The notes under the pieces: model-generated
Seen by the model: the letters and a program-made list of their open reading frames with translations, nothing else
Databases searched by the model: none
What the model was told of the DNA's origin: nothing
Part shown: piece after piece, positions 15,084-34,590 of the stretch
Position numbering within the stretch: the first letter of the stretch is position 1
How the letters are laid out: each line of letters begins with the position of its first letter
Made by a program: the position numbers and the translations under genes
Virus record (IMG/VR): IMGVR_UViG_3300025009_000123
Span: 1 to 57,929 of that record
DNA from: a virus
Lineage: Duplodnaviria; Caudoviricetes
Strand: one strand, 5' to 3'
DNA length: 57,929 nt

Positions 15084-15095
15084 GAGGAGATTAAA

Positions 15096-15289
15096 ATGGC
15101 AATACCGACACAGAATCCGGGCGCGACAAGCGCTATGCAGGCAAAACTTCAGCAATGAGAGGTGGACCGCCAGTACAGGCAGCAGCACCGGCCCAGGAAG
15201 CTCCGCCAGAGGGGAGCCCGATTGACACGGCAAAGATGCACCTGGTAGAAGCCCTCAAAGCACTTAACGCCATGGGAGAGGCACAGTAA
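15096..15289 (+). pseudogene. Small Pro/Ala/Gln-rich gene split by a 1-nt frameshift, or two coupled micro-ORFs
   Basis: MAIPTQ...AKLQQ* (15096-15158) overlaps MRGGPP...MGEAQ* (15155-15289); only the first has an RBS. Confidence 0.45.
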
Positions 15290-15700
15290 ATGCCTATTTA
15301 TGATTACGAATGTAAAAAATGCGGAGTCTTCGAGTCGATAGAGCGAATAAACGACACCTGGACGAGCTGCCCGACATGCGGAAAGAATTCGAAGAGGATC
15401 ATAAGCATGGGCGGGGTTAATATCGTAAATGAGGACGTCCTGCACGTAAGGCAATCGGCGGAAGCCTTGCTCGATAAAGAGTCAGCCGCCAGAGATCCAA
15501 GGCCGCACGCAAGAGATCTGGCGAAGAATCCGACCAGATCAAACCTTAAGAGGTACCTTAAGGCAGAGGGGCTCAGATATGCAGAGAATGAGGGCGGAGC
15601 GCCGCCAAGATACCGAAGACCAGAGGGGCCTGATTCCAAAGCAATCACTAATGATCTGTATAAAAAGCACCGAGAGCGAGAGGCGATAGAAATCAGATAA
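15290..15700 (+). CDS. FmdB-family zinc-ribbon protein
   Basis: MPIYDYECKKCG..FE...CPTCG...RIIS signature. Confidence 0.8.
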   Translation: MPIYDYECKKCGVFESIERINDTWTSCPTCGKNSKRIISMGGVNIVNEDVLHVRQSAEALLDKESAARDPRPHARDLAKNPTRSNLKRYLKAEGLRYAENEGGAPPRYRRPEGPDSKAITNDLYKKHREREAIEIR

Positions 15701-15792
15701 TGAGTGAAGACGCAAAACAAATATGCAGAGTTTTGATAAGAGGTTTTAAGATGATTGTAAAGTTGTTGGAGGAATTGGTGGAACAAAAATAG
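15700..15792 (+). CDS. 30-aa amphipathic peptide
   Basis: TAATG-coupled; MSEDAKQICRVLIRGFKMIVKLLEELVEQK. Confidence 0.5.
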   Translation: MSEDAKQICRVLIRGFKMIVKLLEELVEQK

Positions 15793-15858
15793 CCCATAAA
15801 TAACTGCCCCTATCCCTCGAAAGACGCATAGAGAGGCAAGTCAACCGCGCCACATACC

Positions 15859-15907
15859 AAGGCCCCGTTGAGTCAGAAAACATCTGATTTAACCGGGCCT
15901 TTTTTTA
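15859..15907 (+). terminator. Long hairpin plus U-tract immediately before the scaffold gene
   Basis: aaggccccgttgagtcaga-aaaca-tctgatttaaccgggcctt followed by a T run. Confidence 0.7.
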
Positions 15908-15934
15908 TTCAACCAATAAAGGAGAAAAAAACAA

Positions 15935-16837
15935 ATGTTACCAGAAGAAACGAAAACAGACGACGCTAAAGGAACCCCTGAAACTGCTCCCATAGTGGAC
16001 GCGGACAGGGCCGGAATATCGTCTATTCCGGTTTCGTTGATGTCAAGTCCGGATGCAAGCGCAGCGATTGTATCAACAGTAGATCAATCACCAGTTAAGC
16101 CAGCAGCGGACGCAAAACCGGTCGGGGCGAACGACCCCGAACAAGGCGGAGACGATACCGAAAGGTACGATAAGATCCCCCGCTTTAAAGAAATTATCGG
16201 CGAACGAGACCAAGAGCGAGAGGCCAGGATAAGGGCGGAAGCGAAACTTGAAGCGCTTACGACTAAACCGGCCGTCCCTGCAGGCGAAGCCGAGAAGCCA
16301 TCCACCGAACTCCCGTTCAAGGACATTACTAAAATGTCGGCGGAAGAGTTAAGGGAATGGATGGAGGAAGATCCGGTTGGCTATGAGGCCAACAGGTTTG
16401 CTCAATTTCATTATGAGAGCAAACAACTCTTGGAGCAGGAAGCCATAAAAAAGGCAACCGTTGAGGGAATGGACAAAACTTTCAGCGATTATGAAAAGGC
16501 AAACCCGGATTTCAAAAAGATGTGGGATTCCGGAGAGCTGGAAACATACATGAAAGCTCACCCAGGCCACAACGCGATTTCTGCCCATAAAGAGCTGACG
16601 GAAGCGACAAGGGTAAAGGCGGCCGTAGATGATGCCGTCGCAAAGGCGATTAAAGAAACCGAAGCGAGGATAACTAAAAACTTCCAGGCAAAACGGAATG
16701 CCACGGTCTTAACCGATGGACCCGGTGTTGCTCCTGGGATCACTCCGGACGCTTCATTACAAAACACAAAACAATTCGGGGGTTTTACGCGGATTATGGC
16801 CAACAAGTTGAGCCAGATGCGCCAGAATCCGCAGTAA
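15935..16837 (+). CDS. Capsid scaffolding protein
   Basis: Acidic, coiled; IPRFKEII.ER motif; precedes the major capsid gene. Confidence 0.75.
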   Translation: MLPEETKTDDAKGTPETAPIVDADRAGISSIPVSLMSSPDASAAIVSTVDQSPVKPAADAKPVGANDPEQGGDDTERYDKIPRFKEIIGERDQEREARIRAEAKLEALTTKPAVPAGEAEKPSTELPFKDITKMSAEELREWMEEDPVGYEANRFAQFHYESKQLLEQEAIKKATVEGMDKTFSDYEKANPDFKKMWDSGELETYMKAHPGHNAISAHKELTEATRVKAAVDDAVAKAIKETEARITKNFQAKRNATVLTDGPGVAPGITPDASLQNTKQFGGFTRIMANKLSQMRQNPQ

Positions 16838-16870
16838 CGGCCTCCATGATTCCAAAAAGGAGATCTTGAA

Positions 16871-17845
16871 ATGGCACTTACTTATACAGAAATGGAAGCA
16901 ATAACCGCTGATTACTTTATTGCTGACAACCGGAAAGCGATCGACATTTATTTTAACGACAGTTTTTTCATGGATCTGTTCATGAACAACAAAAAAGGTC
17001 TATGGGAAAGACCGAACGGCGGGAAGAAGATCCGCGTAAACCTGTCTTACGACGGGCAGGAAGGCGGGTTCTATTCAAAGGCATCAACCCTTTCTTCCGA
17101 CGACAAAGAATCTCTCAACTCCGCGTTTTTTCAATGGAAGCATGTTTACGGCAATGCAACCGTTCACAGGCTTGATGAACTGGAAAACGCCGGGGCCTAT
17201 GCCGAGGTTCAGTTGGTTCAGGCGAAACTCGAAGGAGCACAGAAAACCGCCAGGAAGAAAATCGCACAGCAGATTTACTCGGCCGCTGGTGACGGCGCCC
17301 TCGAAATTACCGGCTTGAGGTCCCTCTGTTATGGGGCAGCGGCCACCGCATACGGCGGAATAGCCGAGAACGACCTTGTTGCTGCAGACGGGACAAAGCC
17401 CTGGTCGGCAGAAAACACAACCACGGTCGAGGCGATAGCCCTTTCGGTTATCCGGACCCTGCGATCCGGCGCAAAGATCAGCGACGGCCCCGGGGGAAAA
17501 CCCGATATCGGCCTCACAACCGAGGCGCTGTTCAATATCGTTTCCGGAATTTTACAGGTCCAGCAGAGATTCACCAAGGACACATCGGTAAAAGCCGGAT
17601 TCACGCACCTTGTATTCGAGGAAATGCTGATCGCTGCAGACGATTATTGCCCGTCAGGATATCTCTTTGTCCTGAATAGCCAGTACATTGGTTGGGCTAT
17701 CCACGAACAGGGATATTTTGCAAGAACACCCTGGGGGGATCTGCTTCCTTCCGGTACACCGGCAAAAACGCTCAAGATCTTTTTCGATGGGAACCTGATC
17801 TGCTCAAACAGAAAGGCTCACAAGTCCCATAGCAATTTGAGCTAA
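16871..17845 (+). CDS. Major capsid protein (HK97 fold)
   Basis: 324 aa; GGKKIRV, FQWKH, GLRSL, GNLICSNR motifs; position; followed by a hairpin. Confidence 0.85.
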   Translation: MALTYTEMEAITADYFIADNRKAIDIYFNDSFFMDLFMNNKKGLWERPNGGKKIRVNLSYDGQEGGFYSKASTLSSDDKESLNSAFFQWKHVYGNATVHRLDELENAGAYAEVQLVQAKLEGAQKTARKKIAQQIYSAAGDGALEITGLRSLCYGAAATAYGGIAENDLVAADGTKPWSAENTTTVEAIALSVIRTLRSGAKISDGPGGKPDIGLTTEALFNIVSGILQVQQRFTKDTSVKAGFTHLVFEEMLIAADDYCPSGYLFVLNSQYIGWAIHEQGYFARTPWGDLLPSGTPAKTLKIFFDGNLICSNRKAHKSHSNLS

Positions 17846-17875
17846 ACGGTTTTCGTTTTTAATTTTATACACTTA

Positions 17876-17898
17876 TAGCCGGGGCAACTCCCTGGCTA
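17876..17898 (+). terminator. Hairpin after the major capsid gene
   Basis: tagccggg-gcaact-ccctggcta; no clear U-tract, so it may be a stabilising stem. Confidence 0.45.
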
Positions 17899-17923
17899 AA
17901 CCTTAACATAGGAGAAAAAGACA

Positions 17924-18649
17924 ATGGCTAATCCTTTTAAAACACAGGGCTGGAATCAGGGCCTTTACGAACAATCAGCAACCAAGAAGGAAACTCTTGG
18001 GGCGTTGAGATTTACAGCAGACGGCAGATCTTTCCGGTACGCAAGAGCGAGCGGAGCACTGGCCGCAGGCAAAGCCTGTATTATGGCCCCTGCGATTGCA
18101 AACCATATCAAACAGGCGAATACAGGCTACACGATGTCGGTCGGCGATATGTCGGTCAATGTCCTTATCGGAGCAACAGCCCTCACAGCAAATCAGTATG
18201 ACGACGGATATTTGCAGATATACGACGGCGCTGCTGGCGCGGTCGGCCAGCAGATGATGATCTCGTCTCACGGAGTAAGCGCTGCCGGGTCTGAAGCTGT
18301 ATCTCTGAATCTTGCGGAACCTGTCAGGGCGGCGGTTATAGCGACGGATTCTTTCGCGCTTATTCCGAACCCGTGGAGCGTGGTTTCCAACACAACGGCG
18401 CTTGCAAACGGCTTCGCCGGTATAGCTGTGATTGCCGTAACAACCCTGTATTATTGCTGGCTTCAAACTGGCGGCGTCGGTTGCGTGCTTAACCAGGCCA
18501 ACACTGCTCTGGGATCTAACATCAACCTGTCAGCAACAGCAGGAGCGCTTGAAACATCGGCCGGCTATACCTCGCCGTTCATCGGTAACACGATAGGCTT
18601 TGCGAACGTGTCGGCAAAATACAACCCGATATTCCTGGGTCGTTATTAA
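17924..18649 (+). CDS. Capsid cement/decoration protein
   Basis: LG...TADGRSFRYA and YYCWLQTGG motifs; follows the major capsid gene. Confidence 0.65.
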   Translation: MANPFKTQGWNQGLYEQSATKKETLGALRFTADGRSFRYARASGALAAGKACIMAPAIANHIKQANTGYTMSVGDMSVNVLIGATALTANQYDDGYLQIYDGAAGAVGQQMMISSHGVSAAGSEAVSLNLAEPVRAAVIATDSFALIPNPWSVVSNTTALANGFAGIAVIAVTTLYYCWLQTGGVGCVLNQANTALGSNINLSATAGALETSAGYTSPFIGNTIGFANVSAKYNPIFLGRY

Positions 18650-18668
18650 CCAACAGTCAACACATAAA

Positions 18669-18690
18669 GGGCAGGGGGAAACCCCTGCCT
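18669..18690 (+). terminator. GC-rich hairpin
   Basis: gggcagggg-gaaa-cccctgcct with a GNRA loop. Confidence 0.5.
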
Positions 18691-18709
18691 ACCTACGGAG
18701 GATATAAAA

Positions 18710-18973
18710 ATGGCTTTTTCAGCAACTAAAACAGGCGAAACCGTATTCGGTGACAAGCGAGCTACCTATGGCACCTGGGACGGTGACGGCGAGACGACCG
18801 GGAATATCAATACCGGGCTTCATCATTGTGAACATATTTCGCTGACCGCAGCGGGCGGCGCAATCGTTGCAGACGCCCCGACCGTTGACGAAACCCTTCC
18901 ATGCGACGGATCGGCGGTAACGATCATAGTTACATCGGATACCGACGGCTATTGGATGGCCTTTGGCGCATAA
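18710..18973 (+). CDS. Small virion structural protein
   Basis: VFGDKR...INTGL...GYWMAFG beta-rich pattern; RBS present. Confidence 0.6.
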   Translation: MAFSATKTGETVFGDKRATYGTWDGDGETTGNINTGLHHCEHISLTAAGGAIVADAPTVDETLPCDGSAVTIIVTSDTDGYWMAFGA

Positions 18974-19006
18974 CCATAACGCATAACTAAAAAAAGGCGG
19001 TGTAAG

Positions 19007-20512
19007 ATGGCGCTTACAGTAAACTCTAAAACTTTCTCCGTCGTAGGGGACAAGGCCCTTGTTATTGCGGATATCGCGCTCGACAGCTCCTACCCTTTCG
19101 GCGGGGAAAGTGTAAATACAGATCAGCTTTTCGGGATTCATGCGGTCGAGGCGGTTATTTTAGAAGCCGCTAAGGGCTATTCTTTGCAGTACGATTATAC
19201 AAATAACAAAATCAAGGTCTTTGCTCCCGCGCCCCCGATTGTTTACGAGGAAAAGATCACACCAGCAAGTGATGTTGCGACGTTGAGGTACCCGGCGGCG
19301 TTCATTATGAATATCGCGCGGTCGGAAAACAACAAGAAATTCAGATCTACAGGAATAGCTATCGCGTCTCTCTCCGATGATGAATGTTGCCTTGTCTCGC
19401 AGATGGAAGAAGGCGCCAGGACGCAGATCCGGGTCAAGGACTATGATAGATTGGTCGGGGATGGAGCGTTTACCGGCGGAACAACAAACTGGACGTTTAA
19501 TGCAACGCCCTGGACCTACGGCACAAACAACCTCGAAAAAGACGCTGGCGGAGTAAATGCGCTTACGCACGATAACTTTGCGGCTGTTATTGGGAGAACG
19601 TACAGATTAAGCCTCTCTCTGGCCAAACAGGGCGCAGAGGCAGAGGTTATCGGAACCATCACTCCGACACTCGGAGGCACCGCTGGGGCAGCGACAACGG
19701 CAGACACGACAGGCACATATACCTGGGAGATCGTCGCCACGACGACAGACGGCCTTTCGCTGGTACCTTCCGATACAGGGCGTTTCGTTATCGACGACAT
19801 CAAGATCTATGACATCACAGAGCCGGTTTATGTAACTTATGTTACCCAGGCATGGAAAGAAGTATGGGAAAACCTGGTGCAGGATGAATCGGTCACTCTT
19901 GCAAGCGGAGCAACCTCTTCTCTTGCTAATGCGGCCGTTGCCGTTATGTATGCGGATAGGACCTCGGCGACAGCAAAAACCCTAACGATTATCGATGAAG
20001 ACGATACCGCTGCTTCCGGAGAAGTGGCAATTTACATGAACCAGACATTAACCAACATCAAGGCCACTCATGCCGACGAAAACGCAAAGGTCGCGAAATT
20101 CACCTATATCAAAAAGCCCGCATCCGGTTTTCTGGCTGACAGGGTGTTCGATAATGAGGCAGCAACAAAGGCTGGCGGAGATCCTTACACGAATACATTC
20201 GATTATCCCATTCTAATATGGGGTTATACCGGACAATTACCGGTCAATGGCGGAACAACTCAGGTTCTAATCAATTACGCGGGTACTCCGGCTGCAGGCG
20301 AAGCGGTTATTGATTGGTACAACCCCGGAACAAGAGGCGCGGCAGCCCCGGCAGCAGGAACGGTAATCGGTCTTAAATCAGACCTTACCGGAACAGGGGC
20401 GGGAATATGGGGGGTTGTGTCAGATATTCAGAATCTTCAACCGCTAGAGGTCGCGGACGGCATAGATCTTTCAGGACTCTCTTCGGTCCGCATGATATTG
20501 ATTGGCACATAA
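19007..20512 (+). CDS. Head decoration protein with a large internal insertion
   Basis: N-terminal DSSYPFGGE..GY..YD..NKIKVF and C-terminal EVADGIDLS..VRMILIG flank about 400 extra residues. Confidence 0.6.
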   Translation: MALTVNSKTFSVVGDKALVIADIALDSSYPFGGESVNTDQLFGIHAVEAVILEAAKGYSLQYDYTNNKIKVFAPAPPIVYEEKITPASDVATLRYPAAFIMNIARSENNKKFRSTGIAIASLSDDECCLVSQMEEGARTQIRVKDYDRLVGDGAFTGGTTNWTFNATPWTYGTNNLEKDAGGVNALTHDNFAAVIGRTYRLSLSLAKQGAEAEVIGTITPTLGGTAGAATTADTTGTYTWEIVATTTDGLSLVPSDTGRFVIDDIKIYDITEPVYVTYVTQAWKEVWENLVQDESVTLASGATSSLANAAVAVMYADRTSATAKTLTIIDEDDTAASGEVAIYMNQTLTNIKATHADENAKVAKFTYIKKPASGFLADRVFDNEAATKAGGDPYTNTFDYPILIWGYTGQLPVNGGTTQVLINYAGTPAAGEAVIDWYNPGTRGAAAPAAGTVIGLKSDLTGTGAGIWGVVSDIQNLQPLEVADGIDLSGLSSVRMILIGT

Positions 20513-20527
20513 GGAGGTAATATTGCC

Positions 20528-20872
20528 ATGACTCAAATCAGAAAAACAGAATCAATATATAATATCGACAGGGCAACCGGCGCGGCGGCGATCGCCAAGA
20601 CAATAGCCCCTGGGCGTCCCTGGGAGCTTGAAAGTATCCGTGTCCATCTTTCCGCCGCTGGTGGAGCTGGCGATTTGACGGCCATAATCGATAGCGGCGT
20701 CGGTGCTGCTTATGACCATAACTTGCTCACGCAAGACATGACGGCCGTAACCGATCTTACATGGAGCCCGGATACTCCGATGCTGTTTTCGGCGGATGAT
20801 GAACTTGATATCGCCTGGGCTAATGCCGGGACCAAGACCTATGGACTTGAAATAGTCTATAAAACTTTTTAG
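20528..20872 (+). CDS. Small virion structural protein
   Basis: AAGGAGG RBS; beta-rich. Confidence 0.55.
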   Translation: MTQIRKTESIYNIDRATGAAAIAKTIAPGRPWELESIRVHLSAAGGAGDLTAIIDSGVGAAYDHNLLTQDMTAVTDLTWSPDTPMLFSADDELDIAWANAGTKTYGLEIVYKTF

Positions 20873-20885
20873 GGGAAAACGACCT

Positions 20886-22379
20886 ATGAAAAAGACATTC
20901 ATTATTGTTTTAATTGGGCTGGCTTGCCTTATAATGGCTCCTTCCGCAAACAGCGAGACCATAATTAATGGGGTCAAGGAGGGCGTTTCCGGCTCCGTCT
21001 CCGAATCCGACATCTCTACCATAAACCACGCTGCAACCGAGAAAGCCAACTTGGTCGATGCAGACGAAGTAACCGGGCAGGATTCAGCGGATTCCTTTAA
21101 TCTGATTCGCACTACCTGGACTTCAGTTAAAGCATTTTTGAAAACTTATTTTGATGGCCTTTATGCAACCACCGCCGATGAGACTTTTACAGGCACACAC
21201 ACCTTGCCGGCTATGGCTTTCACGCCGTTAACCGCGGCTCCCGGCTCTCCCGTAGCCGGTACTTGGTACTATGCCGATAATGACACTTGGGACCCGATTA
21301 CCTATGCTGGAACGGCTAACTATTGGGTAATATATGACGGGGCAAGCTACATCGGAATTATAGATGAGGATGGAGTGTGGTTAATAAGTTCGCTGAGTTT
21401 AGGCGGCATCGTCCTTGGTGACACGACCCCTGATGCGATAGGCGAGTTAGGGTATGCTTCCGGCAAGTTCCTGTTCTTTGGCGCTAACTCTGAAGACCTG
21501 TATCTTGAGGTTGGAAGTGCTGCGAATACCGTTGCGGTTGGGTCGAATACGGGCATTGACACCATTGACCTTGGCGCAATCAATCTCCTTACCTCTGGCA
21601 CGATAGGAAGCAAATTCCCAACAGTAGCTGGCGGTGCAGCGGATTTAAGCCTTTCGGTCGCGCAAGTATCAGGGACAAATATATCCAATACGGGGCAGGG
21701 GGTTAATAATAGAAACCACACCCTCCCAGTGGCTGAAGCAGGGCTGGTTTTCATAGGTTCTGTAGGTGAGGCTCAAGGAGCAAGCTATTATAGATTCACA
21801 GCAAATACGACTCCCACGCCTGATGACTTTATGTGTCTTAATGGTACATGCGGAAAGACCTATGTGTCAATCGCTGCCCCTACTCAGGGCGCTCAGGTAA
21901 TGTGTCGAACCGAACAAATTGCATCCACTGGCATTAAAACAGGGGCTGCTCTGGCAATCGGAACGACAAATACGGCAGTTGCAAATGGAGCTTTCACCTT
22001 TGACATCGGCGGTACTGGATACGCAAAGGCCGCAACAGCAGCCGGAACCGCGCCCGGTAATGATGTAATTCCACAAAGCTCTTTTGGGGCGGTCGCTTTC
22101 GATATAGGAGCGGACGGCACAATAGATGCAATCGAAGCTACGGATAACGCAACGGGATACGCCTCTGCTGTTCTTGCGGTTGCTGGTCTTCCTGCGGTTG
22201 CCGCTGCTCACACAAGGATGGGCAATGTGACAGCTTCAAAATCTGACGGAACTTTCACTTTCGGGACTACCGCTCTTGACGCTGCCAGCACAACGGTTGC
22301 ATATACAAGTTCTACGGCTTACACAAAACCATACAATTGGATGTGTAATAGCAGCGTGGGAACATGGGTGACTGATTAA
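20886..22379 (+). CDS. Fibre-like protein with an N-terminal signal peptide
   Basis: MKKTFIIVLIGLACLIMAPSANS leader; HAATEKA.LVDADE..DSA..VKAFLKTYFD.LY fibre-like motif; Gly/Ala/Thr-rich. Confidence 0.6.
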   Translation: MKKTFIIVLIGLACLIMAPSANSETIINGVKEGVSGSVSESDISTINHAATEKANLVDADEVTGQDSADSFNLIRTTWTSVKAFLKTYFDGLYATTADETFTGTHTLPAMAFTPLTAAPGSPVAGTWYYADNDTWDPITYAGTANYWVIYDGASYIGIIDEDGVWLISSLSLGGIVLGDTTPDAIGELGYASGKFLFFGANSEDLYLEVGSAANTVAVGSNTGIDTIDLGAINLLTSGTIGSKFPTVAGGAADLSLSVAQVSGTNISNTGQGVNNRNHTLPVAEAGLVFIGSVGEAQGASYYRFTANTTPTPDDFMCLNGTCGKTYVSIAAPTQGAQVMCRTEQIASTGIKTGAALAIGTTNTAVANGAFTFDIGGTGYAKAATAAGTAPGNDVIPQSSFGAVAFDIGADGTIDAIEATDNATGYASAVLAVAGLPAVAAAHTRMGNVTASKSDGTFTFGTTALDAASTTVAYTSSTAYTKPYNWMCNSSVGTWVTD

Positions 22380-22393
22380 TGGGAGGCTACACC

Positions 22394-23014
22394 ATGAAGA
22401 AACTTTATAAACTTAGTATCATATTATTGATTCTCTTATTCCCTGCCTTCGCCTTTGCTGGCGGGGGAGCTACTACGATGATGATGGGGACGAGTGGGGC
22501 GGCGGTGGCCACTTGTGGTGATTTGGCAACTGCAAGAACGGATGGCGATATTTCACAGGCTATAAGTGATGGCACAACAGGTATGGTGTCGTCTGCTATT
22601 ACAGCCACAGCTTCGGGAACAGCTTTGACTGTATACGTAAAGATATCTGATGTTGGAACTCCTCCGGGATATTTGTACGCCTATCTATGCCCTTCTGATG
22701 GCAGTAACCCGGCATCTGGAACTGCCCTTGATGCCTGTGTGCAGTCAACGACTACAAATATCGGGCCTCCGGGAGCGTCATCCGTAGATGTTAAGTATAA
22801 ATTTGCTGGGTATTCAATTACAAACACAAGCGTTTACCATATTGTTTTGAATCCCTCTGTGGCTGGGGATGCAAGCAATTATTATAGATGGCTCTGCAAT
22901 CGAACAGCAACCAATACAGGTGGTATGGATCAAGATGCCGATGGAACTCCGGCATGGACAAGCATTGATACATCCGCCCAATGTAATTTTAGGGTAACTT
23001 CCTGCGATGAATAA
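22394..23014 (+). CDS. Secreted-type Cys-containing beta protein
   Basis: MKKLYKLSIILLILLFPAFAFA signal peptide; 6 Cys. Confidence 0.6.
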   Translation: MKKLYKLSIILLILLFPAFAFAGGGATTMMMGTSGAAVATCGDLATARTDGDISQAISDGTTGMVSSAITATASGTALTVYVKISDVGTPPGYLYAYLCPSDGSNPASGTALDACVQSTTTNIGPPGASSVDVKYKFAGYSITNTSVYHIVLNPSVAGDASNYYRWLCNRTATNTGGMDQDADGTPAWTSIDTSAQCNFRVTSCDE

Positions 23015-25253
23015 AACACTTATATCATTATTATTGATTATTCTTATGCCCCTTAGTGCGTATGCTGCCTGTACCGACTTGGGCGGGGGAGTCTGGCAAA
23101 CAGACGGCAATGAGGCCGCAGATGTGGCGGAGTGCATTGCGGCTGCAAGTACGGGGAACACCATTAATGTCATTGCTGGTGATGGTGCGACTGCGTGGGC
23201 TGCTCCCGTTTCGGTTACTAAAGCAGTTAAAATAATCGGCCCCGGCAAAACCAATCTAACAATTACATGGTCAGGCGCAAGTGCTTTTAATATCAACACC
23301 GTTGATGCTTGGCGGATAAGCGGATTTAAATTTTCAACAGCGTCATCTCAAACAGCTATTGTTATCAGCAATGGCTCTGGATGGAGGATTGACGCAAATG
23401 ATTACACAAACACACAGTCCAATTCAGGGCTTTTTGCTAATATTGATGTTACCGTATCTGGAGATAACGCATATGGGTTAATTGACAATAACACATTATA
23501 TAACGCAAGAATATTAATGTCGAATGCCAGTCTGTCCTCTGCTGGTATAAATTCACTTTGGGACGATGCCTTGGACTTAGGAACTGCCAATGCAGTGTAT
23601 ATTGAAAACAACACATTTGATGATGATGGTACTTTTACTAAAAACGATGTGGACAGCAACAGGGGTTCAAAATACGTTTATAGATATAATAACAACGCAA
23701 ATGGAATTATGGCTCACGGTCTTTTAACTGGATATAGAGCAAGCAAAACATGGGAAGTATATAACAACGCTTTCAACAGCAAATCAATAAAAACATGGCA
23801 GGCTATATATTTTAGAGGTGGAACTGGCGTAATATTTAGAAACGATTTTACTTCTGAGATTGATTTTAACGGGAGCATTGAATTTGATCTTGAACGTAAA
23901 ACAACCTGCCCTGATGATTATCCCGACTGTACAGACACAACAACTCGGAGAGGGGCATGTGACGGAGACCATGAATGGGATGGCAATACAGGGAGTGGTG
24001 ATACTGCTGGTTATCCTTGCAGAGACCAGATAGGCAGGGGTTTGGATTCATCAAATTGGGCAGATTATTCTACAAGGCCAGTTCCTTCTCAAGATTTAAC
24101 TCCTGCCTATATTTGGGGGAATATCAAGGACGCATCTGCTGTTACAAGCGTGTACGTCCCATCGGCAGGTGGCGATAATTTAATGATCGTAGCTAACCAA
24201 GATTATTATATTAACGGGGCTTCTTTTAACGGAACATCTGGTGTAGGCTCCGGGCTTTTTACCGCGAGACCAGCTACATGCACAACAGGGGTTGGCTATT
24301 GGGGAACTGACACCAACATACTTTATAAATGCACAGCTACGGACACATGGAGCACCTATTACCAGATGTACACCTGCCCTCATCCTCTTGCCGGAGCCGG
24401 AACCTGCTCCTCTGTTGCGGGAAGAGCAGGGTATGAAATTACCGAAGAAGCTGTTTTTTACGATTTGACCATAACTAAGGCGGGGGACGGTTCAGGTACG
24501 GTTACAAGCTCCCCATCTGGTATTAATTGCGGTGTAGGATGTTCTTATTCGTTTGCGTCTGGAACCGAAGTCACTTTAACCGCCACCCCTTCCGGTGATT
24601 ACAACACTTTTGATGGATGGTCTGGCGAAGGCTGTTCTGGAACCGGAACCTGCGTAGTTACGATGTCAGCGGCCAAAAACGTCACAGCTACATTCAGCCA
24701 AACCACTCCAGACCAATTTGCGGTGATTGTAAGTTATGCCGGAACGGGAGAGGGCACGACAAATCCGGCTTCAGGCTCACACGCCTATACGGTTGCGGCA
24801 GAAGTAACCATAACAGCCACAGAAGGGGCTAACGCTTCATTTACCGGATGGTCTGGAACCTGCGGTGCTACAGGAACAGGCAGTGCGGTCTTCAATATGC
24901 CAGCAAACGACTGCACAGCAATAGCGACTTTCGCAGATGACCCGAAATACACTTTAACCGTGACATACCCCGGAGATGGAATAACGGCTGATACCGATGT
25001 TGGCGGTATCCATTGCGGCGAGTACAATTTGGACTGCTCGGCTCAATACTATTCCGGCGCTACCGTAATTGTGACCTCAACATGCTCCACGGCTTCGGTG
25101 TTTTCGGGCGATTGCACAGGGGCGGACTGCTCACTTTCAATGACCGCAGATAAAAATGTGTCGTTAAGTTGCCTTGGGGCAAAATCCACCGCCCAAAATC
25201 AAGCCGGGGGAATGACTGCAATATACCAATCTGGAGGTATGACAGGACAATAA
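23007..25253 (+). CDS. Secreted-type beta-helix protein with InlB-B-like Ig repeats (adhesin/depolymerase-like)
   Basis: Signal peptide ending AYA; Asn-rich parallel beta-helix pattern; three LT(I/V)...G.G.V...C..FxGWSG.C repeats. Confidence 0.65.
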   Translation: MNKTLISLLLIILMPLSAYAACTDLGGGVWQTDGNEAADVAECIAAASTGNTINVIAGDGATAWAAPVSVTKAVKIIGPGKTNLTITWSGASAFNINTVDAWRISGFKFSTASSQTAIVISNGSGWRIDANDYTNTQSNSGLFANIDVTVSGDNAYGLIDNNTLYNARILMSNASLSSAGINSLWDDALDLGTANAVYIENNTFDDDGTFTKNDVDSNRGSKYVYRYNNNANGIMAHGLLTGYRASKTWEVYNNAFNSKSIKTWQAIYFRGGTGVIFRNDFTSEIDFNGSIEFDLERKTTCPDDYPDCTDTTTRRGACDGDHEWDGNTGSGDTAGYPCRDQIGRGLDSSNWADYSTRPVPSQDLTPAYIWGNIKDASAVTSVYVPSAGGDNLMIVANQDYYINGASFNGTSGVGSGLFTARPATCTTGVGYWGTDTNILYKCTATDTWSTYYQMYTCPHPLAGAGTCSSVAGRAGYEITEEAVFYDLTITKAGDGSGTVTSSPSGINCGVGCSYSFASGTEVTLTATPSGDYNTFDGWSGEGCSGTGTCVVTMSAAKNVTATFSQTTPDQFAVIVSYAGTGEGTTNPASGSHAYTVAAEVTITATEGANASFTGWSGTCGATGTGSAVFNMPANDCTAIATFADDPKYTLTVTYPGDGITADTDVGGIHCGEYNLDCSAQYYSGATVIVTSTCSTASVFSGDCTGADCSLSMTADKNVSLSCLGAKSTAQNQAGGMTAIYQSGGMTGQ

Positions 25254-25279
25254 CAATTAAAATTAGAGGATGCTGACTC

Positions 25280-25567
25280 ATGGAAAAACCTTGGAACAAA
25301 GAAGATCGGAGAATCAACAACAGGCTTCACGAAGACGATATTAAGCTGATTGTTTCAGGTGTTATCAAGTCCCTAGACGGTCACTATTGCAGGTTTCAAA
25401 ACATCAGAACCGAAGATATGGAGGCTGTTATTCCTTTCATGCTTTCTTTCAAGGGTATTACTGAAAAGACCGGGATGCTGATATGGAAATTAATTATCGG
25501 CACTTTCATTGTGGGTATTTTTAGTCTGATAGGGTTAGGGTTCTGGAATAGGGTGGGTGGGAGATGA
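25280..25567 (+). CDS. Holin-like membrane protein
   Basis: C-terminal transmembrane helix; coupled to the endolysin. Confidence 0.5.
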   Translation: MEKPWNKEDRRINNRLHEDDIKLIVSGVIKSLDGHYCRFQNIRTEDMEAVIPFMLSFKGITEKTGMLIWKLIIGTFIVGIFSLIGLGFWNRVGGR

Positions 25568-26013
25568 GGCTATCCTACGCAAAAGGCTTTATTCTGATAA
25601 TTGGTCTTGAAGGCAAGGACTCAGACGATCCACAAGACCCCGGTGGCTATACCCGCTTCGGAATTTGTCAGAAATATAACCCCGAAGTTGATGTCAAAAA
25701 TCTGACACTTGAGCAGGCAAAGGATATTTATTACCGGAAATATTGGGAGCCAGCCGGATGCAACGAAGCTCCTTATCCGATGGACATCTGTTTATTTGAT
25801 GGTGCTGTAAATCCGATGCGAGGCGGGAATAAGGAAATACTGAACCAGAACCCCGAAAACTGGCAGGAATTTCTCTTGCTTCGGGCTGTCAGGTACATGG
25901 AACATTCAAAAGATATTTACGTCAAAGGTCATGTGTTCAGGGTCTTGAGATTATTTAAATCCATTAACAGGGATATTCAGTCAATAGAGAAGTTAAAAGA
26001 AACAGGCTATTGA
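25564..26013 (+). CDS. Endolysin, glycoside hydrolase family 108
   Basis: EG..SDDPQDPGG.TRFGI, LT.EQAKDIY...YW, FDGAVN. Confidence 0.85.
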   Translation: MRLSYAKGFILIIGLEGKDSDDPQDPGGYTRFGICQKYNPEVDVKNLTLEQAKDIYYRKYWEPAGCNEAPYPMDICLFDGAVNPMRGGNKEILNQNPENWQEFLLLRAVRYMEHSKDIYVKGHVFRVLRLFKSINRDIQSIEKLKETGY

Positions 26014-26154
26014 TCATGTTGCCGACCCCGGCAAAGGCATAAAGGAGGTCACATGTTAAAGCTGATATTCCTCTTAATTGTAGTGTACGCTTTCTGTCTG
26101 TGCATGTGCAAAATTGCGAGCAAGAACAATTATGATTCCGATAGGGAGTGACCG

Positions 26155-26463
26155 ATGGATAACCTTCTCAAATGGTCAAACGATTGGTGGACTTATTTAA
26201 TCTCTGTCTATACGATTACCATAGGTCTTATCCTGAGTTTCCTCGTTACCGTCCTGAAATGTATTGCTGTATGGCATCCTGATGAACGGACAAATACCAT
26301 TACCGGATTGTTAAGGGGATGGATAGGTGGATTCCCCGGTGCTTCAAAATGGGACGGGCAGGAAGAAAGGCGCAAGGATATTGCAAGAGCCGAGATAGCC
26401 GTTGACCGGAAGGAAATCAAGATTGATAAACAGGAAATTAAGGAGAATGAGGATAAGATATGA
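26155..26463 (+). CDS. Holin-like membrane protein
   Basis: Hydrophobic N-terminal half, charged C-terminal tail; next to the endolysin. Confidence 0.5.
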   Translation: MDNLLKWSNDWWTYLISVYTITIGLILSFLVTVLKCIAVWHPDERTNTITGLLRGWIGGFPGASKWDGQEERRKDIARAEIAVDRKEIKIDKQEIKENEDKI

Positions 26464-26509
26464 CACAAGACCAATTCCTAACCGATTTAAAGTGTAAGGA
26501 GAATGATTC

Positions 26510-27919
26510 ATGTCAATAATGGTTTCGGACCTTATAGAAGAAATACAAGACCAGATTCCGGCCGAGAGGTTGCCGGGATTATTTCCGGCGCTTAATCGAG
26601 CAATTAAAACGATTGCCAAAAAGCTGTATATTCTTGAATCGGATCTCCTGCTCGGCGAGCTGTCAGTCCCGATATTCGCGTCTATAGATTACGCGGCTGC
26701 AACAATAGGCCTTTTGAGTGGCGGGAATGAGACCAGCGACACCATCACCGATTCAGCCGATGGATTCGTTACTGCAGGATTTCAAGTGGGGATGCCAATA
26801 GGAATGAACAGCGCCTTGTCTGGAAATTTGGGGCCGCACAGAATTTCGTCATTGGTGGCTGGAACAATAACCCTCGATGCAAGAGAGTCAAGGTTGACCA
26901 CGGAAGCGGAAGGGGTTTATCACGCAGTCTATCCGCCAGCGTACAGCTCAACTTACGTTAAGGCAACGACTTACTTGGCTGGCGACACAGTCCCTCCGGG
27001 AATCGATTTTACGAGCGCCCCGTGGAATGCCACTAATCCGTCTACTTCTTTAACCGGAGCCGCCGGCAATGCGGCGTGGAAGTCGGCTTTTTTCCAAGTT
27101 ACAAATCAATGTTTCCATATAAAACTTTCGGAAGCGGCGGTTATTGCCCGAATTTATTATGAAAATTATCATAGTTCAGGGGCTAATACAAATTACGGTG
27201 TCAAGAATTTTTCCTTCTGGGGATCAAATACCGAGGCTGATTTTCTTGATACAGCCTATGCGAATGATGGAACATGGGTTGAATTAACTGCCGACTTATC
27301 AGCATCCCAGTTCGACGAACACGCCGCAGCCGATGCCGCTGATCCGAAATATATTACGTCTTCAAACGTAACAAACTATCTTTACTATCGCTTTAAAATT
27401 GCCGACAATTGGGGATATGCGGCGAACATGGCGATAAGAAGGCTTGTATTACTGGAAGCGGCCACCATAACCTCTATTGCTGATTTCGGATATATGCCTG
27501 ACGATTTTTGGGGGTTCGTAGGCGAAGAGCCATATATCTATGGCTATAAATGGCCCCTAAAGCCTCTTCCCGACCAGGCGACGGCGCTTTTATACACATC
27601 ACCAGGAACACCGAATTACTATAAACTCAAAAACAACCGGCTTTATGTGTACCCTGGAACCAGCACAGACATAATAATCAAGGGCGATTACTGGAAAAAA
27701 CCCCCTGCTCTTTCGACCATGAACGATTATGTTCCATGGAATGAGCAGTTTGACGATGTGATATCCGAATATCTGTCAAAGGTCCTTATCGCAGGAGTCG
27801 CTTCCAGCGATGCAGCTCTTCATGAATTTCTAAATGAGTCCGTGTCCCTGATAACATCAAAACGAAGCGGGAAAGCTCCTGTAAAAATGCCCGGCGGCAT
27901 CAATTACGATTTATATTAA
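26510..27919 (+). CDS. Head-tail adaptor-like protein with an inserted discoidin/F5-8-like domain
   Basis: LNRA..., MPDDF, GTP.YY...LYVYP adaptor motifs; insert with GVKNFSFWGSN and YYRFKIADNWG. Confidence 0.6.
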   Translation: MSIMVSDLIEEIQDQIPAERLPGLFPALNRAIKTIAKKLYILESDLLLGELSVPIFASIDYAAATIGLLSGGNETSDTITDSADGFVTAGFQVGMPIGMNSALSGNLGPHRISSLVAGTITLDARESRLTTEAEGVYHAVYPPAYSSTYVKATTYLAGDTVPPGIDFTSAPWNATNPSTSLTGAAGNAAWKSAFFQVTNQCFHIKLSEAAVIARIYYENYHSSGANTNYGVKNFSFWGSNTEADFLDTAYANDGTWVELTADLSASQFDEHAAADAADPKYITSSNVTNYLYYRFKIADNWGYAANMAIRRLVLLEAATITSIADFGYMPDDFWGFVGEEPYIYGYKWPLKPLPDQATALLYTSPGTPNYYKLKNNRLYVYPGTSTDIIIKGDYWKKPPALSTMNDYVPWNEQFDDVISEYLSKVLIAGVASSDAALHEFLNESVSLITSKRSGKAPVKMPGGINYDLY

Positions 27920-27932
27920 GGGGGGTTACTTA

Positions 27933-28826
27933 ATGGCAGCTCCAACAGCTCCAACCAAAACGACGATAGCGACCGAGGCTTTAACTCGGTTTCTCAATGG
28001 CGCATCCCCTGAAACTGACGAGATCACCAGGGCAGAGGATTATGGCCTTGAAAAGGTTAAACGCGACATTATGAATGTCGGACGCACCTGGCGCCCTCTT
28101 TTAAAAACCGTGTACGACATTACGGTTATCGGTGTCTCTCATTATGCGAACCCGGCTGATTTTGATTCTAATTATTCCGTAGGATACATGAACGGAGATC
28201 ATTCGGGGGTATTGGCAACCGTGACGAGCACCAGCGTTGTTGATCTTGCTGCTGCGGAGGACGTTACAAAGGCACAGGCAGAGGGGAAAAAACTACTTAT
28301 TACATCCGGAACGGGCGTCGATCAGTCCCAGGTTATCGACGATTATAATATTACAACGAAACGGGCAACCATGGCAGCGGCTTATGATACTTTGCCGGTG
28401 ACGGGAGACGGATACATCGTCGTGAACAGCATCCTTCCTTTGAGAGATATGATGTCAATCGCTCTTTATGATCGATATCAGCATCCTGGAATTGCCGGAA
28501 CCCCGAAGCGATTCATCCATATACCGAATACAACGGTCGGAGAACTGGCCCTATATCCGGTCCCCGACGCGGTTGGAGGATTACAGCGAAGGTATTACGC
28601 CGATTTAATGCTGATTGATATCACGTCCGCTTTTTATTCAACCATATTAAGAAGGTGGGCCGGAGTGTTCGAACAGGGGATATATGTTTGGAAGCTCGGA
28701 GAAGACGACGACCGATATCAAGAGCAGAACGGGGTATATCAATCAATGCTGATCGCTATGATGGCTAACGATCTGGACGGAGTTGATAAAGAGGGGCTTA
28801 AAAGCGCTGTATCCGGAGGCAAATAA
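27933..28826 (+). CDS. Second adaptor / tail tubular-A-like protein
   Basis: Y..PADF, GTP.RF, LYPVPD motifs. Confidence 0.6.
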   Translation: MAAPTAPTKTTIATEALTRFLNGASPETDEITRAEDYGLEKVKRDIMNVGRTWRPLLKTVYDITVIGVSHYANPADFDSNYSVGYMNGDHSGVLATVTSTSVVDLAAAEDVTKAQAEGKKLLITSGTGVDQSQVIDDYNITTKRATMAAAYDTLPVTGDGYIVVNSILPLRDMMSIALYDRYQHPGIAGTPKRFIHIPNTTVGELALYPVPDAVGGLQRRYYADLMLIDITSAFYSTILRRWAGVFEQGIYVWKLGEDDDRYQEQNGVYQSMLIAMMANDLDGVDKEGLKSAVSGGK

Positions 28827-30389
28827 ATGGCATACAAGGGATCGCATCGGATAGTAAGTTGTGCCGGCGGCGGATTGGTGGGCTGGAATAGCATGACTCA
28901 AAATCTTCCGCCAAACGCCATGGTGCATCCGACGGCCAACATTATTTTTGAAAAAGGCGGCAGAAGGAAACGCGGCGGCACAGCTCACGTTTATAGTTCG
29001 GCCTTTGCCGGAACCCCAAAGATCCTTGGAATATGCGATTGCACTTTCAGCAATCTTACTCAATATATCGTCGTCGCGACAGATGATGGCGATATCTATA
29101 AAAATGATGCCGATAAAATATCTACGGGCCTTGGGACTGCATTCCCCTATTCTTTCGCTTTTGGAGAAGACAAGCTGTTCATTGCGGACGGAGTTAACGA
29201 GCCCCATGTGTGGACCGGGGCAGGCAACACCGCGGAGATTTCAGAACCGGCTGCAGATTGGGCCGCAAGTCCGCCATTTCAAATTATGCTTCATGCTCGA
29301 GGCGCATCAAACAGGATGGCCGCGATTAATAATACAACCCTCTATCTGTCAAAAAGCTATAACGCCGCCGGTGATATGGAGCTTTTTGTCACAAGCGCTG
29401 AATCCTTTTATATGGAAACAGGGGATGGTTACGGCCTGGTCGGGATGGACGAGCTCGGATCTGAACTTATAGTTTTTGGTAAAAAGAAAGCGTACCGGCT
29501 GGACGATTCAGATTTAAGTACGGCAAATTGGGGGTTCTCCCCGGCTCAATGGAGTGGCGGCGTCGCCCATTGGAGATTGAAGATAAAGATACCAACCGGG
29601 GATATAATCTGCATGGTTGACGACGGAGACATATACAGCGTTCAAGCCGCCGCCGAATATGGCGATTATAAAGCAGCATCTCTCATACAAAACAACATGA
29701 TACATCAGTACATAAAAGATAACATAAACCTGGCATATATAAATAATTTCCATTCGGTTTATTACCCTAACATCCGGGCTTGCGTCTTTTTTATGACAAG
29801 TTTTAACAAAACGACAAACGATACGGCCATTCTTTATTATATTGATCGCCCCGTAGATGAAGCCTGGATCGTACACAACAACCTTGTGAATCCTTCCGGA
29901 TATGAGGCTTTTTCAAGCGCGGCGGTCCGCAATAATACAAACGGATCGTTTAGCATATATACGGGAGATTATTCAGGGGAAATATGGAAACTGGACCAGG
30001 CCAACAGGAGCGACAACGGCCTGGCATATTATGGTGGTTTTACGGCGGCGTATGATGCCTTTGATGATCCGCGAAGCGATAAACACATTAACAATGCCCG
30101 CATAACGATAGAGCCGAAGGGGGCGCATGACCTATCGATATATTCAGAAATTGACGGTAAGAATAAGGTTTATGACTCTTTTTCTATATTGCAAAGCGGA
30201 ACGAAGCCTCTTGACGAGTTTGTTCTCGATACGGATGTTCTTGGGGGTGAAAAAATACAAGAAGGAAAAATCAAAATCGGGAAAGTTGGGAAGCGAATAC
30301 AATACGAAATGTTTAACTCCGGCGCAGATCAGGATTTCTTTATAAGCGAATATACAACCGATTTTAAGTTGATGGGAGCAAAACAGTAA
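28827..30389 (+). CDS. Tail nozzle / tubular-B (stabilisation) beta-propeller protein
   Basis: GWN...N..F..GG.RKRGG N-terminus; size and position typical of podoviral nozzles. Confidence 0.7.
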   Translation: MAYKGSHRIVSCAGGGLVGWNSMTQNLPPNAMVHPTANIIFEKGGRRKRGGTAHVYSSAFAGTPKILGICDCTFSNLTQYIVVATDDGDIYKNDADKISTGLGTAFPYSFAFGEDKLFIADGVNEPHVWTGAGNTAEISEPAADWAASPPFQIMLHARGASNRMAAINNTTLYLSKSYNAAGDMELFVTSAESFYMETGDGYGLVGMDELGSELIVFGKKKAYRLDDSDLSTANWGFSPAQWSGGVAHWRLKIKIPTGDIICMVDDGDIYSVQAAAEYGDYKAASLIQNNMIHQYIKDNINLAYINNFHSVYYPNIRACVFFMTSFNKTTNDTAILYYIDRPVDEAWIVHNNLVNPSGYEAFSSAAVRNNTNGSFSIYTGDYSGEIWKLDQANRSDNGLAYYGGFTAAYDAFDDPRSDKHINNARITIEPKGAHDLSIYSEIDGKNKVYDSFSILQSGTKPLDEFVLDTDVLGGEKIQEGKIKIGKVGKRIQYEMFNSGADQDFFISEYTTDFKLMGAKQ

Positions 30390-30402
30390 GGAGAAAACTA
30401 AT

Positions 30403-31371
30403 ATGGGAGCAACCTTTAGTAGAATAAAAACGTGGGTGGCCGAAGTTCTGACGTTTGCCGATTTAAACGCAGAGTTTAATAATATCCTCACGAATTTGAC
30501 GCCTGCAGGAGTTGACGACGCCTCGACCAATGCTGCAGCTATGCAAACAACCGCAGATCCATACCCAGGAGGTGTTGCGTCCCTTCCGACAAGCCTTGAA
30601 GGTGAATTGCAGAGAATACGATATTTACTCGCGCAAATAACCGGAGAAGCGAATTGGTATGTCGATCCGGACATTACCCTGGCCGCTATAGCTGTAGTAT
30701 TCGCAGCAGGATACTTAACCCCAACAACCGGGATAGAGAAAGCCCAGTTTGATGCAAATACGATCTTGGCGGCCAACGCAGACGACACCCCAGCAGCGGT
30801 AACGGTTGCTGAGCAAAGGATAGTTGGCAGAATAACGGGGGGGGATATAGCAGCCCTCACAGCGGCAGAGGTACGAACCTTGCTCGGAACGACCCCGTTT
30901 GTTCTTGGATCTGACGACGCTGACGGAGATATGTTTTATAGGGCATCAGGCCTGCTTGCAAGGCTCGCAAAGGGGGCGGCAAATACAAGTATGTTTATGG
31001 ACGCAGCCGGAGGTATTCCAGAATGGGCCGTCGGTTTAAAAATAGGTTCCTTCACGAGAGACACAGCGGCTGCTTCCGGTGATGTTGCTTATACGGGAGT
31101 GGGGTTTAAGCCGAGTGTCGTTATTTTTATTGCAGGCCACTCAACAACCTCAGCTTCTATTGGGATAAGTGATGGGACCACTCATGGCTCTATATATGCA
31201 CGAACCGCAAATGGTATGGAAACCTATGCATTTTCTCTTTCCGATGCAGCCGGCAGTAATTGGCAACTTGCAATAATAAAATCAATGGATGCAGACGGCT
31301 TTACCTTAACATGGACAAAAGGAGGCAGTCCGTCAGGGACAGATACAATTAATTATTTAGCAATAAGATAA
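30403..31371 (+). CDS. Tail fibre
   Basis: W..EVLT.ADLNAEFNNI anchor motif; TGVGFKP...DGFTLTW C-terminal domain. Confidence 0.7.
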   Translation: MGATFSRIKTWVAEVLTFADLNAEFNNILTNLTPAGVDDASTNAAAMQTTADPYPGGVASLPTSLEGELQRIRYLLAQITGEANWYVDPDITLAAIAVVFAAGYLTPTTGIEKAQFDANTILAANADDTPAAVTVAEQRIVGRITGGDIAALTAAEVRTLLGTTPFVLGSDDADGDMFYRASGLLARLAKGAANTSMFMDAAGGIPEWAVGLKIGSFTRDTAAASGDVAYTGVGFKPSVVIFIAGHSTTSASIGISDGTTHGSIYARTANGMETYAFSLSDAAGSNWQLAIIKSMDADGFTLTWTKGGSPSGTDTINYLAIR

Positions 31372-31383
31372 GGAGTTATTATT

Positions 31384-31689
31384 ATGAGAGTTTGCATCGA
31401 TAAAAAAACCGGGAAACTGATCGAGGCGCAAAGCGGAGGCGACAAGCAGGAGCACCTCAACACGCTTATTAATAACGCAATTTTGCAGGGTTATAAAGCG
31501 GGTGATGTTGAAGCTAAATTCGTAGAAGATTCAGAGTTTAAAACTTTATTAGACGAAGCGACCCAGGAAAAAATTGAGGCGGATCCAATTGAAATCCTTA
31601 TTCAAACAAAACTTCGTGAGATTGCTATTAGCGCCCTGAAAACAGAGGGGAAACTAACAGGGGCGGGGGAAATAAAAACAAAGGGGTAA
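31384..31689 (+). CDS. Tail-fibre-associated protein
   Basis: Follows the fibre gene; strong RBS. Confidence 0.5.
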   Translation: MRVCIDKKTGKLIEAQSGGDKQEHLNTLINNAILQGYKAGDVEAKFVEDSEFKTLLDEATQEKIEADPIEILIQTKLREIAISALKTEGKLTGAGEIKTKG

Positions 31690-31703
31690 GGGGGTGCGCG
31701 GAT

Positions 31704-32255: not shown

Positions 32256-32258
32256 TTA

Positions 32259-32648: not shown

Positions 32649-32650
32649 GC

Positions 32651-33697: not shown

Positions 33698-33722
33698 TAC
33701 TATAAAGGAAAGGTTTAAATAT

Positions 33723-34589: not shown

Positions 34590-34590
34590 T

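Follow-up and report, generated by a model that had tools for sequence, protein, structure and literature searches.

The 57,929-base genome of a tailed virus (Duplodnaviria; Caudoviricetes), IMG/VR record IMGVR_UViG_3300025009_000123, is referred to here at its full length as the window. It contains three consecutive genes, designated A, B and C, whose products each begin with what looks like a cleavable leader for the general secretory (Sec) pathway. We see about an even chance that the three encode a late-expressed, exported and disulfide-stabilized module that is not part of the virion, acts on glycans of the host surface or its surrounding matrix, and is released at lysis. Tailed-phage fibres are generally taken to be cytoplasmic, leaderless proteins. 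What sets the present case apart is that one fibre family, that of A, occurs in two states: leaderless and without a set of four Cys, or equipped with both a leader and the four Cys and encoded in recurrent cassettes alongside partners that are predicted to be exported, one lectin-like and one glycan-cutting.

Three consecutive genes with Sec-type leaders

The window had earlier been read from its sequence alone (hereafter the original prediction), and in that reading the three open reading frames (ORFs) were said to carry basic-hydrophobic leaders and to hold 4, 6 and about 22 Cys in their mature parts. Both statements stand. Each leader has a charged n-region, a hydrophobic core of 7-15 residues and small uncharged residues at -3 and -1, as is typical of Sec substrates cut by signal peptidase I (SPase I); that of B is 22 aa long and ends in A-F-A before a G. 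By count the mature Cys number 4 in A (a fifth lies in its leader), 6 in B and 22 in C, where all are mature. No twin-arginine (Tat) RR motif was seen by eye in the three leaders. A lipoprotein (SPase II) signal was considered for C and rejected: its sequence at this point is Y-A-A-C, and in many homologues the residue preceding the Cys is D, V or T, none of which fits a lipobox of the form L-[AS]-[GA]-C.

Leaders were called with our own heuristic for the n-, h- and c-regions, which flags 14% of background ORFs (136/962). Applied to the window it flags 4 of the 66 ORFs, namely A, B, C and a lipoprotein-like ORF at 4514-4834(-), and the chance that three of four such ORFs would be consecutive is 0.0055. 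The genes are closely packed, with a 13-nt gap before A, an 8-nt overlap of B with C and a 26-nt gap after C. The overlapping stop/start junctions that had been described for them are therefore only partly present: B and C do overlap, and the stop of A overlaps the listed B start, the ATG at 22379, by 1 nt, but A ends 14 nt short of the ATG at 22394, and C does not reach the next gene. The start at 22394 is the likelier one because GGAGG lies 8 nt before it; a leader is present from either start.

Conservation of the leaders among homologues, one of the checks that had been suggested, came out in their favour as judged by the same heuristic. A leader is found in 100 of the 120 C homologues examined (the best 120 of 435 matches), most of them ending in A-x-A followed by (A/V/D/T)-C, and most of the 20 without one appear to be N-terminally truncated, their first residue falling within the leader or the helix. 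For A, where the best 120 of 220 matches were taken, 61 contain the whole C-terminal module, and 46 of these 61 carry a leader. The B family comprises 81 representative homologues at E<=1e-3, mostly of ~200 aa, whose members align from residue ~1-10; since they align from the N-terminus, the leader of B is conserved as well.

A fibre-like protein family in which four cysteines covary with the leader

In the AlphaFold2 (AF2) model of A, residues 245-497 have predicted local distance difference test (pLDDT) values >90, and the N-terminal 240 residues are poorly modelled, as would be expected for the monomer of a fibre. The phage-fibre-like motif that had been noticed in A is borne out by fold matches of the C-terminal module to fibre, spike and receptor-binding protein (RBP) domains. 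Its outer domain aligns (VIA-align) with the capsid spike knob of Pa223 at Z 11.0 (root-mean-square deviation (rmsd) 2.3, 98 residues aligned) and with residues 79-184 of the N-terminal domain of CBA120 TSP4, in the docking domains of that protein, at Z 10.8. The inserted domain, residues ~345-480, gives lower scores (Z 5.7-7.0) and resembles Mtd (Z 7.0), an archaeal tail fibre and the shoulders of lactococcal RBPs (5.7-6.2). Both types of fibre domain, knob and shoulder, are thus represented in A. Matches in a library of viral models were to tail fibres and Mtd-N proteins, and a PDB sequence-profile search with A returned nothing useful.

The behaviour of the four Cys in this module provides the strongest link between leader and fold. 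All four are present in 40 of the 46 leader-bearing homologues vs 4 of the 15 leaderless ones (Fisher p 2.5e-5); the latter four sit on contigs of <=2.5 kb and may be truncated, and the remaining leaderless fibres mostly have V, I, L, A or M at the four sites. Partial patterns among the homologues (CCMA, FGCC) suggest that the Cys would pair as 317-322 and 340-487. That the quartet covaries with the leader within one family argues for real export and disulfide folding. The leader, moreover, appears to be an addition to an existing protein: residue 2 of the leaderless fibre P0181 aligns to residue 23 of the leader-bearing P0154 (53% identity, E 6e-10), and the leader-bearing P0176 and P0144 are likewise collinear with the N-terminus of P0181 (49-53% identity for the set), from which it follows that the same fibre occurs both in a leaderless form and with a leader placed in front of it. 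Another 58-kb phage (L142) encodes a P0181-like fibre in its tail region, and the window's own leaderless fibre at 30403-31371 has a segment in common with that fibre.

A separate observation concerns residues 344-477 of A (21915-22316), a domain of ~130 aa that recurs at 60-78% identity in otherwise unrelated phage proteins, an unusual degree of conservation across different carriers. The carriers are gp6-like connectors (PF05135), PF11134 proteins, SU10-type adaptors and ~280-aa coiled-coil proteins, and in P0151, P0177 and P0180 the domain is present in two or three tandem copies. In P0221, P0227, P0232, P0233 and P0237 a leader-like N-terminus is followed by an SU10-adaptor-like domain and then by the 130-aa domain; PF24175 is found at residues 30-147, after the leader, in P0221 and P0233. 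An exported head-to-tail adaptor makes no sense under the usual assembly scheme.

A beta-helix enzyme candidate with cellular relatives

C had been described as a beta-helix followed by InlB-B-like repeats, and fold matches and the Pfam family PF18998 agree with that description. The helix is of the right-handed parallel kind, with best alignments at Z 20-23 over 256-291 residues and a Foldseek probability of 1.00. By VIA-align its nearest neighbours are an alginate epimerase/lyase (8ja4; Z 23.1, rmsd 2.9, 267 aligned), RbmB (9ozd; Z 22.9) and the phage depolymerase Kp32gp38 (Z 22.4), with the periplasmic depolymerase VexL (6fi2; Z 18.9) and WceF (6tgf; Z 17.7) somewhat further away; Foldseek gives E ~1e-4 to PL31/PL6 lyases. 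At the level of sequence the helix has zero Pfam, NCBIfam or PHROG matches, and matches to PDB profiles are weak (7chu, E 0.0011). Nine positions are invariant in an alignment of 62 C sequences (E200, D216, R226, H237, E250, Y252, N279, R297 and D340); these would fit a putative active site along the helix. On the strength of its model, C is probably a polysaccharide-lyase/hydrolase-like beta-helix. The repeats that follow score 54 bits against PF18998 (gathering cut-off 23.6) and are beta-sandwich units of lower pLDDT in the model.

The helix begins directly after the leader, which leaves C with no N-terminal virion-anchor domain. C-like genes are also found in 56 cellular genome loci, the best in Smithella/Syntrophaceae (37% identity over residues 1-712) and further ones in Acidobacteriota, Nitrospirota, Methylobacter, and bins of candidate phyla radiation (CPR) bacteria and DPANN archaea, often in tandem arrays. 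BLAST of the flanks fetched for these cellular genes gave no match to any other window protein. Because the cellular C-like genes are without phage neighbours, C looks like a captured cellular secreted enzyme; A, in contrast to this cellular pedigree, appears to be of phage origin.

B is possibly a lectin-like beta-sandwich. Its neighbours in the ESM Atlas are lectin-like or DUF4082-like beta-sandwiches, which we take as a lead only, and comparison of A, B and C with PHROGs, NCBIfam and PADLOC gave nothing but a weak PHROG match for B (E 0.0049). A predicted complex of B with the C beta-helix is not counted as evidence here: the median score was 0.42 (runs of 0.60, 0.42 and 0.00) with 0% contact agreement between runs, the best control reaching 0.01 and the partners having pLDDT >=78. 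In calibration, 58 of 80 solved complexes attained the mark, as did 2 of 110 mismatched pairs; scores <=0.60 accounted for only 7 of the 80 and for both mismatches.

The cassette recurs and is exchanged

A survey of synteny in related phages had been proposed, and it showed that in many viral contigs a C-like gene closes a run of leader-bearing genes. Of 167 viral stretches with a C-like gene, 80 loci were kept, with ORFs defined by a greedy longest-ORF method. Among the unique C-like ORFs 52 of 67 carry a leader. The next gene upstream is leader-bearing in 29 of 47 cases (p 6e-13 against the background rate given above) and the second gene upstream in 21 of 37 (p 5e-9); both upstream genes are so in 20 of 37. 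In six loci the gene immediately upstream of the C-like one is a member of the B family. The remaining leader-bearing proteins encoded upstream are diverse and mostly without a Pfam match: clustering of the 65 upstream leader-bearing proteins gave mostly singletons, and Pfam searches with ten such proteins from loci other than the window gave one match only, to Beta_helix.

A sister phage of 58,011 bases, ~96% identical to the window over 11989-21386 and 27464-30411, differs from it in only three patches. The largest, 21387-25563, takes in the C-terminal two thirds of A, all of B and C, and the gene for a 95-aa membrane protein; the sister's replacement genes at this position are also leader-bearing, and the N-terminal 180 aa of A are conserved at 84% while its C-terminus is swapped. 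The second, 26914-27463, is a DUF5000-like insert in the adaptor gene (E 2.5e-4, below the cut-off) that is missing from the sister's 287-aa adaptor, and the third, 30873-31597, is the tip of the leaderless fibre. In being exchanged together with a fibre tip and an adaptor insert, the cassette behaves like the host-range parts of the phage, which fits a module specific for the host surface.

Possible roles of the cassette

In the model that we favour, A, B and C would be a mobile three-gene module, located immediately ahead of the lysis genes and transcribed together with the late genes. The three proteins would be made late in infection and moved across the inner membrane by Sec, where signal peptidase I would remove their leaders, and they would fold oxidatively outside the cytoplasm. 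C may then act as a glycan-cutting beta-helix enzyme on the polysaccharide of the host surface or matrix, and B, if lectin-like, and A, as a trimeric fibre built of phage fibre domains, may bind or target that glycan, perhaps in a complex. At lysis the three would be freed as soluble agents rather than as virion parts. They would then remove capsule or exopolysaccharide and destroy the receptors displayed by debris and by nearby cells, which would allow progeny to escape and spread. Export and oxidative folding are well supported by the comparison of homologues. The original prediction had offered two outcomes, export with disulfide folding in the periplasm and attachment to virions at lysis, or a surface or secreted adhesin complex; of the two a secreted adhesin/enzyme complex fits better. 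We favour a non-virion role because C lacks an anchor domain and seems to descend from cellular proteins, because the phage has a leaderless fibre of its own, and because there are precedents among soluble late depolymerases, exported tailspike-like enzymes and Sec-exported endolysins.

Several observations nonetheless weigh against this model. A is composed wholly of virion-type fibre domains, and the leader-bearing P0154, P0176 and P0144 extend collinearly through the N-terminus of leaderless P0181, possibly a virion-anchoring part. The SU10-adaptor-like proteins with leader-like N-termini, P0221 and P0233, hint that virion-type proteins can carry leaders, and the cassette varies jointly with the receptor-binding parts of the virion, as tailspikes would. 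Within the C family the relation between Cys and leader is non-discriminating, the core pairs 318/338 and 425/442 being kept in 7-9 of 11 ORFs for which no leader was called. The calling itself relies on a home-made rule with an appreciable background rate, and linkage to lysis genes is a feature of a subset of loci rather than general.

Some of the same observations would be accommodated by a two-compartment assembly of the virion, in which A, B and C are exported, become disulfide-folded outside and attach to completed particles once holin and endolysin let the compartments mix. A contains only fibre, spike and RBP domains, relatives of A have a leader prepended to an N-terminus that leaderless fibres have in common, the retention of the A N-terminus beside an exchanged C-terminus is as in modular fibres, leader-bearing SU10-adaptor-like proteins exist, and the cassette sits within the structural gene block; tailless or fibreless particles of other phages, moreover, can be completed in vitro. 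We nevertheless consider this route unlikely, as C resembles a family of secreted proteins of cells and carries no anchor domain at its N-terminus, the phage already has a leaderless fibre and adaptor, and the leader on a homologue (in locus L006) of the small protein encoded just upstream of A at 20528 would place the whole set outside the cytoplasm. We know of no tailed phage that assembles through two compartments, and no report on leader-bearing phage fibres or on such assembly was found in open-access papers and preprints. Unlikely to the same degree is the more general proposition that a widespread group of tailed phages exports part of its host-recognition apparatus (fibres, lectin-like adaptors, glycanases and perhaps adaptor-like proteins) through Sec, folds these parts with disulfides outside the cytoplasm and completes its virions at lysis.

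The cassette might instead be expressed from the prophage, as cargo for lysogenic conversion or superinfection exclusion that remodels or masks the receptor against related phages. Exported receptor-blocking proteins are a known kind, with Llp and Cor as examples, the phage appears to be temperate, and the exchange of the cassette between near-identical phages is what would be expected of a cargo module. Such a role seems quite improbable, however, given how tightly the cassette is packed into what looks like a late operon, with the short gaps and the overlap described above, and a scan for promoters and terminators found no excess of sites (20 sigma-70 promoter-like vs 18.5 expected and 17 terminator-like vs 13.6, with a consensus that may not be that of the host) and none that flanks it convincingly. 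Neither the three cassette proteins nor those encoded around them match a PADLOC model, and a separate lipoprotein gene beside the repressor is a more typical candidate for exclusion.

Very unlikely, in our judgement, is a role as accessory to lysis, in which the exported enzyme and its partners would breach an outer layer (capsule, sheath, S-layer glycan or matrix) that lies beyond the reach of holin, endolysin and spanin. In the window and in loci L004, L003, L107 and L130 the cassette is directly followed by a small membrane protein and then an endolysin, GH108 in the window by Pfam and, as read by eye from the sequences, of the GH108, M15-like or GH24 type across these loci. Three endolysin families are also distinguished by Pfam: a search of the 84 ORFs that lie downstream of 40 C-like genes with leaders identified 2 GH108, 1 Phage_lysozyme and 1 Peptidase_M15_4 domains, and connector and head-completion proteins as well. 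The block of cassette and lysis genes moves as a unit between backbones, as illustrated by L003, where it is found at a different place in a related backbone, and a clear two-component spanin was not seen in the lysis region. Set against this, only a minority of loci have the linkage, and a simple lytic enzyme would need no fibre-like or lectin-like partners.

Relation to known systems

The closest parallels to a free, glycan-degrading module would appear to be the soluble phage depolymerases PghP and LevP, which are reportedly freed by lysis only, without export; the cassette encodes three proteins instead, all of them with paired Cys and a Sec leader, and one consists of fibre domains. PghP and LevP of Bacillus phage phiNIT1 are described as non-virion, late-made and burst-released enzymes that degrade polymers of the outer coat of the host and were apparently acquired from hosts, and LevP-type levanases as having a fold different from that of C (PMC6966330). 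C likewise has many cellular homologues. Among the fold neighbours of C, WceF is described as a tailspike-like glycanase exported by Tat (PMC7949094). WceF, VexL and RbmB resemble C in being right-handed beta-helix enzymes that work on capsule or biofilm polysaccharide outside the cytoplasm; they differ in that they are encoded by chromosomal genes of polysaccharide loci, whereas C is phage-borne, has a Sec-type leader and InlB-B repeats, and has no detectable sequence-family link to them.

Use of the host Sec system by late phage proteins before lysis has precedents in Lys44 and P1 Lyz, and Lys44 of phage fOg44 is described as an endolysin that crosses the membrane in this way (PMC6116005). 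Those proteins are peptidoglycan hydrolases; in the window, by comparison, the endolysin is leaderless and the set predicted to be exported consists of a fibre, a lectin-like protein and a glycanase. Pa223 gp52, CBA120 TSP4, Mtd and the lactococcal RBPs have domains in common with the C-terminal module of A and are leaderless virion proteins, whereas A has a cleavable-looking leader and a leader-linked Cys quartet. The Shiga toxin genes of lambdoid phages encode leader-bearing proteins just upstream of the lysis cassette that are made late and released by lysis. The cassette shares with them both the leaders and the position upstream of lysis genes, but no similarity to toxins was found, and its fibre and glycanase domains make a bacterial surface glycan the likely target. 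If A, B and C are free agents, many environmental phages would carry a secreted coat-stripping toolkit, which would matter for enzyme discovery and for how phages spread through biofilms and aquifers. If they instead join the virion after export, tailed phages would possess a new route of assembly. Under either reading, a leader together with the Cys quartet could serve as a marker in annotation.

Genome context and neighbouring genes

The viral record is complete at 57,929 bases and is identical in extent to the window. Genes for terminase, portal and major head protein span 10582-17845, and a DnaB helicase gene is present. From its gene content the phage appears to be podovirus-like, and temperate because it encodes a tyrosine integrase and an S24 repressor (Table 1).

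Table 1. Coordinates of the cassette, its predicted parts and other features of the window
Feature	Position	Strand	Description
S24 repressor	4869-5522	-	
Small leaderless protein just upstream of A	20528-20872	+	114 aa; possibly part of the module
Gene A, exported fibre-like protein (predicted)	20886-22379	+	497 aa; from leader, homologues, AF2 model and fold matches
A signal peptide	20886-20954	+	23 aa; KK n-region, hydrophobic core, A-N-S before E; mature start E24
A C-terminal module	21618-22376	+	aa 245-497; knob/XD-like domain with inserted Mtd/RBP-shoulder-like domain (aa ~345-480); Cys 317, 322, 340, 487
Gene B, exported beta-sandwich protein with Cys (predicted)	22394-23014	+	206 aa; alternative start 22379
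Gene C, exported beta-helix glycanase-like protein with InlB-B repeats (predicted)	23007-25253	+	748 aa; 22 Cys
C signal peptide	23007-23066	+	20 aa; A-Y-A before A-C; mature start A21-C22
C right-handed parallel beta-helix	23067-24416	+	aa 21-470; pLDDT mostly >90
C InlB B-repeat (Flg_new_2) domains	24456-25172	+	three by eye, each with Cys pairs; PF18998 E 1.7e-14 in two stretches
Holin-like protein	25280-25567	+	95 aa; one C-terminal membrane helix; travels with the cassette
GH108 endolysin	25564-26013	+	PF05838 E 1.4e-19; phrog_315 endolysin
Holin or i-spanin-like protein	26155-26463	+	102 aa; N-terminal membrane helix, charged coiled C-terminus; from sequence
SU10-type adaptor	26510-27919		
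Leaderless tail-fibre candidate	30403-31371	+	C-terminal half swapped in sister; 56% identity over 72 aa with leaderless L142 fibre
Tyrosine integrase	46719-47807	-	

The genes at 19007 and 20528 had been taken for capsid decoration genes, an assignment that we could not substantiate, as neither has a significant family match. The product of 20528 has zero matches in family searches including PADLOC and falls into phage-only clusters of the ESM Atlas. A 46%-identical homologue of it in L006 (6986-7444), located between a terminase-like gene and A-like and B-like genes, carries a leader, so that this small protein too exists with and without one.

Downstream of C, a homologue of the 95-aa membrane protein (48% identity) directly follows A-B-C in L003, and a similar small membrane protein follows the cassette in L002/L063. 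The 102-aa membrane protein has no family match in the searches made. The 32-aa ORF between it and the endolysin (26053-26151) begins with hydrophobic residues and contains a cluster of Cys; it is too short to be a typical o-spanin.

More than 98% of sampled window words are present in four groundwater metagenome runs, a possible source of the phage, and no RNA run is among the sequencing runs listed as matching the window. A tRNA search of the window found none and hence gave no clue to the host from tRNA, and megablast of window 16000-36000 against a phage collection gave zero matches. The ends of the window, 230-2417 and 56234-57929, are diverged direct repeats of 81-98% identity at a spacing of about 55.5-56.0 kb, and the same phosphoesterase-like gene is present in two versions, at 217-1464(-) and 56224-57408(-). 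This looks as if two variants of a circular or permuted genome had been joined in a wrap-around assembly, in which case the true unit would be ~56 kb.

Three further genes deserve mention. The 106-aa ORF at 4514-4834(-) has a lipoprotein-type leader (L-F-S-C) and adjoins the S24 repressor gene, a position typical for a superinfection-exclusion or conversion gene; it has no match in family searches including PADLOC. A 348-aa ORF (33543-34589) within the tail gene region, overlapping adjacent ORFs, has a PAPS-reductase-like domain (E 1.2e-9). Finally, 35917-46488 encodes a 3,523-aa polyvalent protein with LPD1 and RadC/JAB domains and only 2 Cys; it resembles the large polyvalent proteins of mobile elements, and in L142 the fibre gene comes after a giant gene of similar kind.

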